IMG/VR virus record: IMGVR_UViG_3300031772_009399
Source: a virus
Length of the DNA: 13,925 nucleotides
Strand: one strand, 5' to 3'
The notes under the pieces were generated by a model. It had not been told where the DNA came from and did not search any database. It worked only from the letters and a program-made list of their open reading frames with translations. Shown piece by piece: positions 129 to 9,387 of this stretch. Each line of letters begins with the position of its first letter. Positions within the stretch are counted from its first letter, which is position 1. Position numbers and translations under genes: made by a program.

Positions 129-404
129 ATGGAAATAGTCATCTTTGATCCCACGCAAGAGCTTCACAAGTGGCGCAACCTGCGCCCCGGTGACATGTTT
201 TTGTTGACTGTGCACCCGGACAAGGTCTCAAAATATCCTGCTCGCACGCACTGGTTCGACAACTGGTTCGGTGCCTCCTTCGAATACGGCAAGTGTTACA
301 TGATCGTTTCACGGAATGCTATGAACGCCGATGGAACGATTCCCAACATGCCGCGGTTCTGGGTCCTGGGTCCCGAAAACTTTTTCAAAGAGGCGATGCC
401 GTGA
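129..404 (+). CDS. Small PGD-motif family protein (member 1, 91 aa).
   Basis: ATG preceded by GGAGG about 9 nt upstream. Carries an N-terminal 'LRPGDMFLL' motif, then a hydrophobic strand 'CYMIVS' and a W-containing strand 'FWVLG', as in the paralogs. Its stop overlaps the next start (GTGA). Confidence 0.6.
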   Translation: MEIVIFDPTQELHKWRNLRPGDMFLLTVHPDKVSKYPARTHWFDNWFGASFEYGKCYMIVSRNAMNADGTIPNMPRFWVLGPENFFKEAMP

Positions 405-709
405 ATGGTCCCAACCTCGTCAGGATCAATCCTTTCCGTGATCCTGAAGACTTTGATGCACTTCACCCCGGCGATGCCTTCGTCGTGTTCTCCCACAACA
501 AATACGACGATTGTTACCCATGCGATCCTGTCGAAGGTTGGTTCGAACTTGAGACGGTGTACTTGTTGTTGTCGCGGTACTATCGAAAAGGTGACCCTGA
601 TTACTATGAACGTGAGTCGGTTCTCGTTACTTGGGTCACCTGTGAAGGTCAAGTCAAGAAAGTAGAGCTCCATGCACACGGTCCTCGACCCGTACGAAGG
701 CGTTCATAG
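401..709 (+). CDS. Small PGD-motif family protein (member 2, ~103 aa), GTG start overlapping the upstream stop.
   Basis: In-frame GTG at 401 gives the GTGA overlap. Motifs: 'LHPGDAFVVF', 'VYLLLSRY', 'LVTWVT'. The track ORF 293..709 shares this frame, and the 401 start fits the translational-coupling pattern used elsewhere. Confidence 0.55.
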   Translation: MNGPNLVRINPFRDPEDFDALHPGDAFVVFSHNKYDDCYPCDPVEGWFELETVYLLLSRYYRKGDPDYYERESVLVTWVTCEGQVKKVELHAHGPRPVRRRS

Positions 710-983
710 CACGCTGGCCGATGTCTTTCACGGTATGCACCCAGGTGATACATTTTCACTCTCTACCCGCGGAGACGATAGGGTACTGTGGGGAACTCAC
801 TGGCGTTCGCCGTTCACAGTCACAAAATACAGGCCCAGTGACAGCCTAGCCTACGATGTCTTCTATTTGGTTGTGGCAATCACCCACCAGGAGTTTTGCC
901 GTGACGGTGTGGGTCAGGTGAACTTTGAGTTGAAGAAACTCACAGTCATCGCAAATGATCGTATCAAAGAATTCACAGTGTAA
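672..983 (+). CDS. Small PGD-motif family protein (member 3, 103 aa).
   Basis: Motifs: 'MHPGDTFSL', 'VFYLVVAIT'. ATG at 672 overlaps the end of the previous gene. Confidence 0.5.
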   Translation: MHTVLDPYEGVHSTLADVFHGMHPGDTFSLSTRGDDRVLWGTHWRSPFTVTKYRPSDSLAYDVFYLVVAITHQEFCRDGVGQVNFELKKLTVIANDRIKEFTV

Positions 984-1026
984 GCACAAAGTGCACTGTC
1001 CTGTGGAAAAGTGATACAATTTGACT

Positions 1027-1347
1027 GTGGCCGATGATGAATTGACCGAGGTTGTCATGGCAGTCGACTTGCTCCCTGGCGATGTCGTCGTTCCAAGTCA
1101 ATTTTACACTCCCACAAGCTACGCACCAGATTACTGGTATCACTGTCGAATTTTGATCTCACGCTCGCGGTGCTGGAACAAACGCGATTCCGATGATAAC
1201 ACCGGGATGGCTTCTCCGGAAGTGTTCAATGTCATCACACTGCACTGGCTGACACTGCTGCGCCCCTCGGGGATCAAGATGATTTCAGGCGATTTCGCGG
1301 CTGATGCTAAGTTCAACCGTTTGGTCAGCCCAGCGAGGGAAAAATGA
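1027..1347 (+). CDS. Small PGD-motif family protein (member 4, ~106 aa). GTG 1027 is preferred; alternatives are TTG 1021 and ATG 1057.
   Basis: Motifs: 'LLPGDVVVP', 'YHCRILISRS', 'ITLHWLT'. The stop overlaps the next ATG (ATGA). Confidence 0.5.
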   Translation: MADDELTEVVMAVDLLPGDVVVPSQFYTPTSYAPDYWYHCRILISRSRCWNKRDSDDNTGMASPEVFNVITLHWLTLLRPSGIKMISGDFAADAKFNRLVSPAREK

Positions 1348-1550
1348 TCTGTGTACCAAGCTGTGCAAAATTGACGAGCCAACTAGTACCAGGCGACATG
1401 GTCATCTACGATAAGATCGTATCGTTGGTCATCGGTATCTCTGAACGCAATGAACATTCACGGTACGTGTTGTTGTTTCCCATCAATGATACCGGCAAGC
1501 TCTATAACTGTCCCGCCGGCGTCAGTGCCCGGTGGAATTGCCTCTGGTAG
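1344..1550 (+). CDS. Small PGD-motif family protein (member 5, 68 aa).
   Basis: GAGGG Shine-Dalgarno 5 nt upstream and an ATGA overlap with the upstream stop. Motifs: 'LVPGDMVIY', 'IVSLVIGIS', 'YVLLFP'. Confidence 0.5.
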   Translation: MICVPSCAKLTSQLVPGDMVIYDKIVSLVIGISERNEHSRYVLLFPINDTGKLYNCPAGVSARWNCLW

Positions 1551-1557
1551 TGTAGCC

Positions 1558-7371: not shown

Positions 7372-7749
7372 GTGAAGGCCAAACCCGGACAATTTTGGGT
7401 CTGGCAGTTGCCTGTCAGCTCGGGGGATTGGGCCTTTGAAAAACCTTCACAGCAACGCCGTGATGACTGGTTGGCGATTCCTCAGGGTCACGTACATGTC
7501 CACCGCGGCGATGTTTTCATGATTGTCTCATGCAACGATGCAGGACCTGCTCACGATATTCCTCGATTTCATCCAGGCAAAATTCCAGGGATCGACGAGG
7601 AGCTCAACATTCCTGTGCCTGCGGTAGCTATCCACAAAAAGATCTGGCACACTGCTCTGCACGGTCACGAGATCTTCTGGTTGGAAGAACCTGCGCTGGA
7701 ATTCTGCGAACTGTTGAGGGATTCAGATGATCACGACAACCATTCTTGA
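7372..7749 (+). CDS. Small family protein (125 aa) with variant motif 'HRGDVFMIVSCND'.
   Basis: GTG follows the upstream TAA directly, with AGGGTG 8 nt upstream. Strands 'VFMIVS' and 'EIFWLEE' are present. Confidence 0.5.
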   Translation: MKAKPGQFWVWQLPVSSGDWAFEKPSQQRRDDWLAIPQGHVHVHRGDVFMIVSCNDAGPAHDIPRFHPGKIPGIDEELNIPVPAVAIHKKIWHTALHGHEIFWLEEPALEFCELLRDSDDHDNHS

Positions 7750-8005
7750 TATATCCCGCCAAATAGGATGGAAGTACGGTGCCGATGTCACAGAACTACA
7801 AAAATGGTTCCCGCCAGGATCACTGGTTATCTGGTTCAATGAACAATTCGGTGATCACCGCGCAGAGCTGATCGTCGGTTGGCACCGTGACTGCATGGAC
7901 CTATGGAATATCATGGTCATTGATCACGGTCATGTGAGATCGTATACTTGGGTCGTGCTACAGACCGCTCAAACCATCGAGGAATACGAGTACTACCTAT
8001 GTTGA
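7727..8005 (+). CDS. Small family protein (92 aa) with variant motif 'PPGSLVIWF'.
   Basis: GAGGG 8 nt upstream of the ATG. Strands 'AELIVGW' and 'LWNIMVI' are present. Confidence 0.5.
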   Translation: MITTTILDISRQIGWKYGADVTELQKWFPPGSLVIWFNEQFGDHRAELIVGWHRDCMDLWNIMVIDHGHVRSYTWVVLQTAQTIEEYEYYLC

Positions 8006-8346
8006 CGCATGATTCATGGGATTCTCTGAGAATCTGGTCTAGACCTGGTGAAAACGACAGCGATGACCTGCCGGGTGTCTACCATGGGGGTTACATGCCG
8101 CGGCCTGGCGATGCCGTCGAACATGCTTGGCAACCTCCTGGAGCCAGTGCCGGAATCATCCTGACGGTCGATCCTGTCACAGGTGAGTGTACCATCCTGT
8201 GGTCAAAGACGCCGCACGTTAACGTACAGAGACAAAACATCACATCAAGATCACGGAAGCTCAAGCTCACGTGGTCAGTTGCACACAATGAAGACGTCAA
8301 GTTCATCAGCTCTGTCGACACGAAAGTCAGCTTCCTCAAGCCATGA
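7999..8346 (+). CDS. Small PGD-motif family protein (~115 aa). ATG 7999 is preferred over the track start 7948.
   Basis: Motifs: 'PRPGDAVEHAW', 'AGIILTVDPVTGECTILWS'. These closely parallel the genes at 8343 and 8603. The ATG overlaps the upstream stop (ATGTTGA). Confidence 0.5.
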   Translation: MLTHDSWDSLRIWSRPGENDSDDLPGVYHGGYMPRPGDAVEHAWQPPGASAGIILTVDPVTGECTILWSKTPHVNVQRQNITSRSRKLKLTWSVAHNEDVKFISSVDTKVSFLKP

Positions 8347-8606
8347 TCAAGAACACCTTCCGCGGGCGTCTACGATCTTTTATTCCTTCCCGTGGTGTCG
8401 GCCATGCCCAACCAGGCGACATTGTCACCACACACTGGGACAAGACAACGTTCGGTCTGGTGATCGCAGTCAATGACGATCTTGTTACTGTCATGTGGAC
8501 ATTGCCTCCCCACAAGAACGAAGAAATGATGACCGCGCTGTCTGAGCAGATTGCTAAAGAAATTGACCGTGATATCTTGAATGACCTGTTGGCGGGGACC
8601 AAGTGA
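8343..8606 (+). CDS. Small PGD-motif family protein (87 aa).
   Basis: Motifs: 'AQPGDIVTTHW', 'FGLVIAVNDDLVTVMWT'. ATGA overlap. Confidence 0.6.
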   Translation: MIKNTFRGRLRSFIPSRGVGHAQPGDIVTTHWDKTTFGLVIAVNDDLVTVMWTLPPHKNEEMMTALSEQIAKEIDRDILNDLLAGTK

Positions 8607-8923
8607 TTCGCAGCCACGATATCCGTGAACTGTGTCCCGAGGGAGACACACGCTTTTCGCCTGGATCACCCGTGACACTGTTTGGCTCCCGCGAGAAGAC
8701 GTACGGGATCGTCATTTCTCAGATTGAATCACAGTGTACTGTCCTCTGGACGAAGTACCCTGATCCCAAGAGCCTTTTCTTCACGTTGCCCAATGTCAGG
8801 CTGCCTGACATTGGGCAAGTTTTCACTGCACCGATCGCCGAAATCTCGGCGAGCATCCAACCGATGACGGTCCCACGACGAGGGCATTTTCTATCACGAG
8901 TACACCTACGGTTCAGGTTCTAA
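8603..8923 (+). CDS. Small family protein (106 aa) with variant motif 'SPGSPVTLF'.
   Basis: 'YGIVISQIESQCTVLWT' is parallel to the previous gene. GTGA overlap, with GGGGA upstream. Confidence 0.6.
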   Translation: MIRSHDIRELCPEGDTRFSPGSPVTLFGSREKTYGIVISQIESQCTVLWTKYPDPKSLFFTLPNVRLPDIGQVFTAPIAEISASIQPMTVPRRGHFLSRVHLRFRF

Positions 8924-9154
8924 GTGAAGTACAGGCCTGGAAATCTACTGTGTTACATAGATCCATGGGGACTCAGTCGATCGATTCACCTGATCCTCGC
9001 CACGGGGACGATTTCAGGAGGAGTATACCACGATTGTTATGTGACGTTGTCTGAGGGGATGGTTCAGTACATGCACTGTCACTTCATCGATGCTAATAAT
9101 ATCGATGAACAAGGTCACCAGTACAATGATGTCGGGTGGACGGTCCTCGCGTGA
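8924..9154 (+). CDS. Small family protein (76 aa) with variant motif 'RPGNLLCYID'.
   Basis: GTG follows the upstream TAA directly. Strands 'IHLILATG' and 'CYVTL' are present. Confidence 0.45.
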   Translation: MKYRPGNLLCYIDPWGLSRSIHLILATGTISGGVYHDCYVTLSEGMVQYMHCHFIDANNIDEQGHQYNDVGWTVLA

Positions 9155-9387
9155 GATCTCCAAAAGTTCCTGATTTCAGGTACGGCCCGGGCACGTTGTT
9201 GCTACAGGATGATATCTGGGCCGACGGAAGCTACGATCCACTCTGGTTGGTCATCGGCACCTGTTGGTGCCAAAAGTTGAGTGGGGGGTTCTGGGAATAC
9301 GTGTTGCTCGGTGGTGGTCGACTGCGACGCGCCTCGTGTTGGGAGGTCAATAACAGCAAAGAATGGTCGATCGTCACCCCCGTCTGA
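9136..9387 (+). CDS. Small family protein (83 aa) with variant motif 'GPGTLLLQDD'. An alternative GTG start at ~9151 would overlap the upstream TGA.
   Basis: Strands 'LWLVIGTCW' and 'FWEYVLLG' are present. It is the last gene before a ~360-bp non-coding gap. Confidence 0.45.
   Translation: MDGPRVRSPKVPDFRYGPGTLLLQDDIWADGSYDPLWLVIGTCWCQKLSGGFWEYVLLGGGRLRRASCWEVNNSKEWSIVTPV

Follow-up and report, generated by a model that had tools for sequence, protein, structure and literature searches.

The 13,925-nucleotide stretch analyzed here (the window), from the viral record IMGVR_UViG_3300031772_009399 of IMG/VR, corresponds to the initial 13.9 kb of a metagenomic contig of 36,284 bp (ENA ERZ27247880 k141_2627583). 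On both sides of a gene for a homolog of the major vault protein (MVP) it carries arrays of tightly packed, same-strand small genes whose products share an N-terminal domain marked by a PG[DSNT] turn. We refer to these proteins as the PGD family and to their shared domain as the head; the C-terminal tails that follow the head in several members resemble segments of the major capsid protein (MCP) of T4-type huge phages, although the arrays lie at a distance from the capsid gene. The window genes lie almost all on the plus strand and are close-packed with frequent overlaps. The MVP homolog occupies positions 2761-5364 of this strand (867 residues from the ATG at 2761, with a GTG at 2698 as an alternative start), and its open reading frame (ORF) matches the Pfam family MVP_shoulder at an E-value of 2e-29 and also Vault_3. 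Orthologs with 41-75% identity were found on IMG/VR viral huge-phage contigs of up to 436 kb, and homologs with ~40% identity in the 'uncultured phage' genomes LR756500, LR756501 and LR756503 (462-735 kb). Since the MVP orthologs sit on large viral contigs and in huge phage genomes, the window can be assigned to a huge phage. Passages of a 2023 preprint (10.1101/2023.11.10.566534) already describe a phage MVP homolog located outside the structural gene cluster, and MVP in phages is thus not new here.

An initial annotation of the window had proposed a large and very divergent family of small proteins, and this family proved to be real. In sixteen plus-strand ORFs of 45-115 residues, PG[DSNT] stands at residues 5-36 and precedes a hydrophobic residue (or T/P). 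When only hydrophobic residues were allowed and the motif was sought in the first 45 residues, it was present in 14 of the 20 small ORFs, as compared to a mean of 0.43 and a maximum of 4 in 2000 trials with shuffled proteins, and in no more than 3 of the 76 ORFs that lie in other frames or on the opposite strand. The related loci L003, L004, L005, L006 and L013 likewise hold 10-15 motif ORFs on the coding strand versus 1-6 on the other. A head profile was then built from 27 members of other loci, excluding the window sequences, and run on 123 window ORFs: the top 13 were all family members (E-values 3e-11 to 0.28; best non-member 1.1). By this profile m02, m12, m17 and m18 were within noise; in blastp comparisons m01 and m02 resemble each other, as do m17 and m18. 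Between the window and L005, identity amounts to 73% for MVP and 64% for a 2H phosphoesterase, versus 32-46% for the family members, many of which have no detectable ortholog. The PGD proteins are a lineage-specific, fast-evolving multigene family of uncultured T4-type huge phages. Most family ORFs had been called by the gene caller of the source, which missed m07, m08, m16, m17 and m18. Nearly all members had initially been described as translationally coupled through ATGA or GTGA, which is overstated: within the two arrays 7 junctions have the exact 4-nt overlap, and 10 have it in the window as a whole, the other genes overlapping by 7-74 nt or abutting. Stop-codon recoding was considered as a source of the small ORFs and rejected, as neighbors lie in different frames and the MVP gene is intact in the standard code.

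All members lie on the plus strand. In the array upstream of MVP, m01 (129-404; 91 residues, PGDM at residue 20, profile E-value 0.085), called in four independent assemblies, is joined by a GTGA overlap to m02 (401-709; 102 residues from the GTG at 401, PGDA at residue 23), which it resembles at a blastp E-value of 0.002. They are followed by m03 (672-983; 103 residues, PGDT at residue 24), which at a profile E-value of 0.28 still ranks above all non-members, by m04 (1057-1347; 96 residues, alternative TTG at 1021, PGDV, profile E-value 0.009), whose ortholog L005_8032 is 34% identical, by m05 (1344-1550; 68 residues, PGDM at residue 16, profile E-value 6e-4), which shares an ATGA overlap with m04, and by m06 (1956/1968-2231; PGDF, profile E-value 0.095), which contains a Pro/Leu-rich insert. 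The coding status of m07 (2228-2392; 54 residues) is doubtful, and m08 (2337-2474), with a PGD motif, is a doubtful gene as well. The stretch 2228-2643 around them shows PGSL and PGDL motifs and three ORFs overlapping in three frames; its hydrophobic strands are in the frame of ORF 2401-2643, the only one of the stretch called by the gene caller of the source, and m08 and this ORF are probably one member split by a frameshift. The downstream array begins with m09 (6289/6292-6567; 91 residues, PGDI, profile E-value 1.8e-4), which has orthologs in L005 (46% identity), L003/L004, L013, L009 and L017, and m10 (6564-6863; 99 residues, PGDM, profile E-value 0.036), linked to it by an ATGA overlap. 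Further on, m12 (7372-7749) carries an RGD variant of the motif (RGDVFMIV) and has the orthologs L009_7847, L013_18455 and L017_4480, and m13 (7727-8005; 92 residues, 'FPPGSLVI', profile E-value 0.18) has the ortholog L013_18892 in a group that also holds L008_18398, L009_8399 and L017_4944. The three members with recognizable tails come next: m14 (7999-8346; head 7999-8217, profile E-value 2.5e-9), m15 (8343-8606; head 8343-8513, overlapping m14 by ATGA) and m16 (8603-8923; head 8603-8764, profile E-value 2.4e-8, overlapping m15 by GTGA). The array closes with m17 (8924-9154; 76 residues, PGNL at residue 5), which was called in strain L100 and resembles m18 at a blastp E-value of 3e-4, and with m18 itself (9136-9387; 83 residues, PGTL), similar to L009_9959 (51% over 45 residues) and to L013_21043. 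The original member list needs three corrections: m07 and m08 are doubtful, m16 is frameshifted and m11 is reassigned to another family.

Each protein starts with a head of ~55-75 residues whose conserved marks are the PG[DSNT] turn and a '(V/I)LW(S/T)' strand. AlphaFold models were obtained for m15 (pLDDT 71) and for m14 (pLDDT 67, from an alignment of 25 subfamily sequences), and both have the same topology. The leader is modeled as two short strands, the PGD turn opens the third, and strands four and five come from the 'G-hydrophobic-V-I' and 'V-L-W-S' segments; in m14 these strands span residues 2-6, 10-13, 39-42, 51-57 and 63-70, with a core pLDDT of 81-86. Five strands in a strongly bent antiparallel barrel of ~50-70 residues are what defines SH3-like barrels, and the head is predicted, with modest confidence, to be a five-stranded SH3-like beta-barrel. 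Of the SH3/KOW-like barrel that had been suggested from the motif, the fold is thus backed by the two models, whereas membership in a named barrel family (KOW, SH3 or Tudor) is not shown, the PDB profile search of the heads giving Spt5 KOW at an E-value of 0.22. The idea that the leader, of the form 'MSxLKTY', serves for capsid targeting as in T4 was dropped, since it is part of the barrel in both models; the alignments also showed no conserved cleavage motif that would separate leader from head.

The family had been thought undescribed, and the database searches agree with this. The heads gave no family match in Pfam at E-values up to 1 except stray hits, none among the PHROGs and none in the PDB; the PADLOC models, a library of defense and not of anti-defense proteins, matched 0 of 10 locus proteins, and Foldseek against viral models found nothing significant. 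A word-indexed protein search, too insensitive for this purpose, returned 5 matches with the family alignment and m09 alone with m09 as query. None of 50,697 GenBank phage records had such a head, and a tblastn search with a protein of the T2 tail type (see below) matched only an MCP gene, via the tail. A head-only profile run against 1.84 billion representative proteins yielded 122 matches at E-values up to 0.001; a few long matches with multiple stretches resemble unrelated repeat proteins, and the remainder are proteins of 63-243 residues with the head mostly near the N-terminus. The tail counts given below refer to 116 head-bearing representatives (clusters at 50% identity).

The C-termini of the family had been described as hypervariable. 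In the sub-array m14-m16 and in its relatives they are instead copies of defined segments of the MCP and, in relatives, also of the portal. The first indication was that m14 and m15 weakly matched, in both Pfam and the PHROGs, successive positions of the Gp23 model. When gp23 of phage T4, taken from the T4 GenBank record, was used as a blastp query against 2217 ORFs of the loci, the six best matches were all tails of family members. The Pfam Gp23 model (PF07068, curated cut-off 24.4 bits) was matched by 7 of 38 aligned members: four relatives exceeded the cut-off at 28-34 bits, through tails in L005, L009 and L013 that align to profile positions 3-48 or 135-170, the m14 ortholog L005_15369 reaching 34.4 bits, and the window tails stayed below it (m15, 17.7 bits at positions 171-195; m14, 13 bits at positions 135-170). 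A search with the aligned tails found ~400 IMG/VR loci, of which 80 were kept. Most of these hold full-length MCP genes of 617-655 residues, which in this clade sit in a T4-like head module (Portal_T4 portal, S77 prohead protease, Gp23). An MCP profile of 631 positions was built from 54 full-length huge-phage MCPs, the reference MCPs being those of relatives and not the window phage's own. The tails scored up to 55.9 bits with this profile, over matches that span only 24-67 residues.

The matches define four tail types. T1 (MCP 76-127) comprises the end of the N-arm, a P-domain strand and the first insertion-domain linker, T2 (MCP 372-413, with profile matches at 344/374-413) the second insertion-domain linker and a P-domain strand, T3 (MCP 413-440) the spine helix, and tail type T4 (MCP 578-631), found in relatives at MCP 578-628 (L008_18866, 46 bits), the C-terminal P-domain strands. 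The window has T2 (m14), T3 (m15) and a frameshifted T1 (m16). The m14 tail (8218-8346) corresponds to MCP 374-413 and to residues 254-285 of T4 gp23 and is a coil when modeled alone. The m15 tail (8523-8594) corresponds to MCP 413-436, the first half of the spine helix, and is modeled as a low-confidence helix; its sequence 'ALSEQIAKEIDRDILNDL' aligns to the MCP consensus 'ILSEQIALEIDREILNDL' with 18.1 bits. The DNA of this tail and the MCP genes of L057, L042 and L038 share 90% identity over 50 nt, which could reflect either recent copying or codon bias on a very conserved segment. Among the 116 representatives, 40 carry MCP-like tails (15 T1, 12 T2, 3 T3 and 10 T4). The A-domain and the ~250-residue insertion domain are not matched by any of them, and no shuffled control matched. 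In a PDB search with the T2-subfamily profile the only matches were T4 gp23 chains, at an E-value of about 0.2. The tails occupy ~25-50 residues after the head in the m14-m16 sub-array and retain MCP motifs such as QPMxxPxGxxFYxDYxYG. Their mean pairwise identity is 0.29-0.41, versus 0.36-0.44 for the heads; being about as conserved as the heads, the tails are, as a class, not decaying remnants. None of the tail proteins has a complete HK97-type fold, with P and A domains in one polypeptide, and no resemblance was found between the tails and MVP or other large proteins of the loci. These comparisons show that the tails originate from the MCP and, in relatives, also from the portal.

The tail of m16 (8789-8927), of type T1, is interrupted by a +1 frameshift near 8880. 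It corresponds to MCP 81-123 (81-110 as read), and its score with the clade MCP profile rises from 5.6 bits as read to 26.0 bits after one base is skipped. The shift lies after 'QPMTVP' (window 8860-8927), where the other frame continues 'EGIFYHEYTYGSGSK*' and restores an MCP-like motif; the corrected protein reads '...IQPMTVPREGIFYHEYTYGSGSK' / '...QPMTVPREGIFYHEYTYGSGSK' up to MCP 123, and its end overlaps m17 by GTGA. A second assembly, that of strain L100 (3956-4300; 99.4% identical), carries the same frameshift together with another indel, and the frameshift is therefore not an assembly error. The m16 tail seems to be decaying in the lineage of the window, although the frameshift may also be programmed. 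Inside the coding region of the tail lies a perfect 15-bp palindrome (8786-8818), 'TTGCCCAATGTCAGG CTG CCTGACATTGGGCAA', at the site where orthologs have 'SSIAFPLVRRVF' and strain L100 an indel; template switching may have left it as a scar, or it may act as a regulatory hairpin.

Among the representatives, the same head was found with different tails in P0001, P0003, P0004 and P0005. P0003 has the head of P0004, a T2 protein, but a different C-terminal end, 'EDAAYVREKLYAALKIPRTYLGF', which is 70% identical over 23 residues (E-value 6e-7) to the segment 'EDVAYIQKKLFAALKIPRAYLGY' of a huge-phage T4-type portal and also resembles residues 360-376 of T4 gp20. P0011 matches the portal-crown region at an E-value of 8.5e-4, and related long T2 proteins carry a portal-crown-like piece. 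In P0016, two head-and-tail units, T2 and then T4, are joined in one ORF. Eleven of the 116 representatives, with both T1 and T4 tails among them, end in [ST]G[ST] followed by 0-3 residues (...SGSI, ...SGSV, ...GSGSK): P0036, P0045, P0052, P0083, P0092, P0098, P0100, P0101, P0108, P0109 and P0122. The corrected m16 of the window ends likewise, and this motif may be a shared C-terminal signal. In long T1 members a conserved segment rich in Trp and Arg, 'C..GP.W.R..WR...', follows the MCP piece (L009 8647-9249, L013 19922-20530, L017 5776-6393, L103 3771-4346 and P0103). Another recurrent tail, 'P.KP(I/V/M)EYI.L.(F/L)', has no recognized source (L103 3505-3774, P0058 and P0118), and the same is true of further tails in P0025, P0027, P0033, P0043, P0053 and P0054.

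We examined how far the arrays are tied to MVP. The gene is adjacent to the arrays in every array-bearing locus, about 12 related loci in all, including L017 and L103, which had been found through a tail and a head, respectively, and not through MVP. The proposed co-occurrence therefore holds in this direction, but the converse fails: no arrays surround MVP in the distant MVP loci (the AT-rich megaphages LR756500/501; L010-L012 and L014). As head-based locus searches of IMG/VR and JGI metagenomes returned the L013 contig alone, the co-occurrence rests on these about 12 loci. In 78 MCP loci (638 kb), the head profile found no member apart from one weak match (E-value 0.0024). Beyond gene order, nothing links the PGD proteins to the MVP shell. 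The order of the array genes varies between loci: T2, m12, m13, T3, T4, T1 in L017; T2, m12, m13, portal-type, T4, T1 in L013 and L008; m13, T2, T3, T1 in L005 and in the window, which also has m12 before m13; and portal-type, T3, an unknown member, T1 in L103. Genes for Peptidase_M24 proteins of the methionine-aminopeptidase type (E-values 1e-48 to 1e-53) lie inside the arrays of L013 (16969-17835), L009 (6819-7556) and L008 (17012-17755). An endonuclease VII gene was also seen inside the L008 array.

The remaining window features lie around or between the family genes. Directly 3' of the MVP stop codon, a scan for terminator-like structures found a GC-rich 16-bp stem-loop (5365-5400, plus strand), which could be a terminator or an attenuator between MVP and the downstream genes; an Rfam scan of the window gave no match. 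The next gene downstream of MVP (5435-6160, plus strand) encodes 241 residues, has orthologs in L003-L006 and comes after MVP in all related loci; its product had no match in Pfam, PHROG or PADLOC and is a candidate MVP partner. Within the upstream array, the non-member gene 1558-1971 (plus strand) encodes a 2H phosphoesterase: it matches Pfam 2H-SAK at 24.7 bits (cut-off 27) and phrog_12204 at an E-value of 1e-18, two H-x-T motifs (HITV and HMTV) are recognizable by eye, and its L005 ortholog is 64% identical. A calcineurin-like phosphoesterase (metallophosphoesterase) is also among the neighbors. The ORF m11 (6868-7371, plus strand) belongs to a second small family together with 10169-10729, which it matches at a blastp E-value of 3e-10, and has orthologs in L003-L005 and L017. 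Proteins of this family are 160-190 residues long, with the N-terminus 'GD-x-V...N-(S/T)-G-G-(V/I)-I-Y-x-I-V' and a conserved C-terminal helix; they were found in L003-L005, L008, L009, L013, L017 and L103 and had no match among known families. Between m18 and the next plus-strand gene, 363 nt (9388-9750) are free of plus-strand genes; a 122-residue ORF on the minus strand (9374-9742) in this gap lacks database support. An ORF of 793 residues, without Pfam match, starts at 11569 and runs off the end of the window (13925). Further downstream, the contig of the window encodes an IF1/eIF-1a-like protein and a Cpn60/TCP1 chaperonin (L101 10844-20822).

The origin of the tails points to a role in head morphogenesis rather than to vault cargo. 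The N-terminal region and the insertion-domain linkers of T4 gp23 mediate contacts within and between capsomers and stay flexible or disordered until they are stabilized by neighboring subunits, and the spine helix and P-domain strands constitute the core (PMC9546572). Our preferred reading, which we consider possible but hold only tentatively, is that the tail-bearing PGD proteins stand in for, or compete with, head-protein elements in trans and thereby exert a chaperone-like or braking action on folding or assembling MCP and portal; this mechanism is one we infer. The barrel would serve as a soluble handle and the tail, by self-mimicry, would bind whatever the native MCP or portal element binds. 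In the MCP, the elements T1-T4 must meet across the ~250-residue insertion domain and the ~140-residue A-domain, and their meeting would form the P-domain core and E-loop-like linkers. Because T1-T4 are the very elements that must come together in this core, folding or assembling MCP and portal subunits would be the likeliest partners, and surrogate strands and helices could hold, shield or brake intermediates of the head proteins in trans. The weak structure of the tails when modeled alone, coil or low-confidence helix, is as expected of a peptide that folds on a partner. We also count in favor of this reading the proteostasis genes near the arrays, namely the M24 genes in L008, L009 and L013 and the IF1-like and Cpn60 genes downstream in the contig of the window. 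Several observations weigh against it. No tail source is recognizable in m01-m10, m13, m17 and m18, and a mechanism based on tails would thus cover only part of the family. The frameshift in the T1 piece of m16, present in two near-identical strains, implies that this piece is dispensable in the lineage; the sets of tail types differ between genomes, which argues against an obligatory complex; and the arrays sit outside the head-gene module. The m16 frameshift, the variable tail sets and the many members without a recognizable tail source together weaken any model that requires an obligatory complex.

The tails could alternatively be turned against the host, although we regard this as unlikely. 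They would then be immune decoys or anti-defense factors that show the most conserved MCP and portal peptides, those expected to be recognized by host sensors of phage structural proteins, and titrate or block these sensors before the head proteins accumulate. Only the most conserved segments of MCP and portal have been copied, as such a role would favor, and the genes evolve fast, orthologs being 30-46% identical versus 73-75% for MVP; tandem expansion together with the swapping of tails on the same head, seen in the four representatives named above, is typical of arms-race genes, and both the 2H phosphoesterase and the metallophosphoesterase are neighbors. Type T1 moreover covers the gp23 region 93-132, which we take to include the Gol peptide (about residues 93-122), the trigger of the Lit protease; a copy of a trigger peptide would however be expected to activate the sensor and not to block it. 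In the folded MCP, neither the core strands nor the spine helix are exposed, which makes them unlikely epitopes for sensors of folded proteins, and neither members nor neighbors matched a PADLOC model, in a library that holds defense rather than anti-defense proteins. A precedent for diverse small anti-restriction proteins exists in the internal proteins of T4 (PMC3012670).

Somewhat less probable still is that the proteins are passengers of the head. The mimic tail would dock the barrel at the portal vertex or in the procapsid, where it might add a beta-strand to MCP linkers, and the proteins would be packaged, injected or displayed as decoration in the manner of T4 internal or minor capsid proteins. 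T1 and T2 do hold the linker and N-arm elements that contact neighboring subunits in T4 (PMC9546572), but T3 and tail type T4 are core elements that are unexposed in the assembled shell. The diversity of the family recalls the T-even internal proteins, among which a targeting element is all that is shared (PMC3012670), and we also count in favor the [ST]G[ST] end common to 11 of 116 representatives; against this, the leader is modeled as two strands of the barrel and not as a cleavable targeting peptide, and the genes lie outside the structural module.

A split pseudo-capsid protein built jointly by the tails is improbable. The T1-T4 pieces of four members would co-fold into a P-domain/E-loop-like core and so yield a heteromeric mimic of the capsid protein, a split pseudo-capsid in which barrels replace the MCP's delta domain, insertion domain and A-domain. 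In its favor, the four tail types coincide exactly with the P-domain core's non-contiguous elements, with none from the periphery, and the heads are joined where the MCP has its delta domain (before 76), its insertion domain (128-373) and its A-domain (437-577). L017 also keeps the order T2-T3-T4-T1, and P0016 unites a T2 unit with a T4 unit. The sets are however incomplete, with T4 lacking in the window and L005, T3 in L013 and L008, and T2 in L103, and the T1 piece in the lineage of the window is the frameshifted m16.

The initial annotation had raised the possibility that the N-terminal module shared by the family docks onto the MVP shell as a tag or adaptor, to which we now give little chance. 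MVP does stand directly upstream of the arrays at all array loci, including L017 and L103 with their MVP-independent discovery, but this link is one of gene order in a single phage clade, distant phage MVP genes have no arrays, and the tails point to capsid and portal, none of them resembling MVP. A slim chance likewise attaches to a combination in which MVP shell and barrels form one machine, the barrels docking on or in a vault-like particle and the tails capturing nascent capsid or portal subunits, and it is just as doubtful that the vault would then be a folding or assembly compartment, or a decoy 'pseudo-capsid', for huge-phage head proteins; its appeal is that it joins two solid facts, the strict MVP synteny and the MCP/portal mimicry. 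Finally, it is very improbable that the tails are functionless leftovers of a redundant MCP or portal copy invaded by a selfish, duplicating head cassette, since, despite the rotated MCP order of the pieces (T2, T3, T4, T1), the frameshifts in m16 and probably m08, and the palindrome and strain-specific indels in the m16 tail, the tails are in frame and conserved like the heads across lineages with ~40% head identity, keep the key MCP motif given above, persist in 40 clusters at 50% identity and, by occurring in different types on the same head, imply repeated acquisition.

The family comprises 116 or more clusters at 50% identity in public metagenomes, reaches 10-17 copies per locus and belongs to a T4-type huge-phage clade with MVP, and its architecture combines a variable small barrel with exact-register copies of capsid or portal core elements. 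Should the tails work by self-mimicry, as we tentatively prefer, they would represent a novel means to control or chaperone how a very large, insertion-rich HK97-fold capsid protein folds; with other partners, self-mimicry would amount to new anti-defense decoys against sensors of capsid or portal, or to a new route of capsid targeting. The arrays also offer a first functional lead on why phages keep an MVP gene, and the tails, as natural peptides, are engineering tools that may address intermediates of T4-type capsid assembly.

Compared with known systems, family and architecture appear new in kind; our confidence is high for the descriptive claims and low for the mechanism. The tails of m14, m15, m16 and many relatives are homologous to segments of T4 gp23 (PF07068), but unlike gp23 the PGD proteins have only pieces of 25-60 residues behind an unrelated barrel and possess no A-, insertion or delta domain. 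In these phages the MCP proper is encoded by a separate gene of 617-655 residues in the T4-like head module. The proposed working principle, an element supplied in trans, is akin to donor-strand complementation, by which the PapD-type chaperones of chaperone-usher pili shield a subunit until its native partner replaces them. This likeness is a mechanistic analogy only: there is no homology, and here the subunit has its own copy of the element. The cargo peptides of encapsulins are dedicated motifs that bind the interior of the shell, and cargo genes adjoin the shell gene. By analogy, a short C-terminal peptide on an unrelated protein would in both cases meet an HK97-fold shell; the PGD tails differ in copying the shell protein itself, and their genes are distant from the MCP gene. 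For the heads, small beta-barrels of the SH3/KOW/Tudor type and the insert-in-flap chaperone domain of SlyD are among the closest known systems. The MVP phages of the 2023 preprint (10.1101/2023.11.10.566534) are gut phages with a different genomic context, and its passages on flanking genes, capsid and host make no mention of neighboring arrays of small proteins. In the literature covered, which is incomplete so that absence is not proof, we found no description of phage proteins that carry segments of the phage's own capsid or portal. Closest in concept are the internal proteins of the T-even phages, IPI, IPII and IPIII, encoded at polymorphic loci, which are likewise small, diverse, fast-evolving, encoded side by side, linked to the head and united by one short shared element (PMC3012670). 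According to the models, the PGD proteins appear to lack the defining trait of internal proteins, an N-terminal targeting sequence of ~10 residues with a prohead-protease site. No sequence similarity between the two families was found, no search aimed at the T4 internal-protein sequences having been made; they differ in that the shared element is a cleavable 10-residue targeting sequence in the internal proteins and a folded barrel of ~55 residues in the PGD family, in which alone C-termini copy the MCP and the portal.

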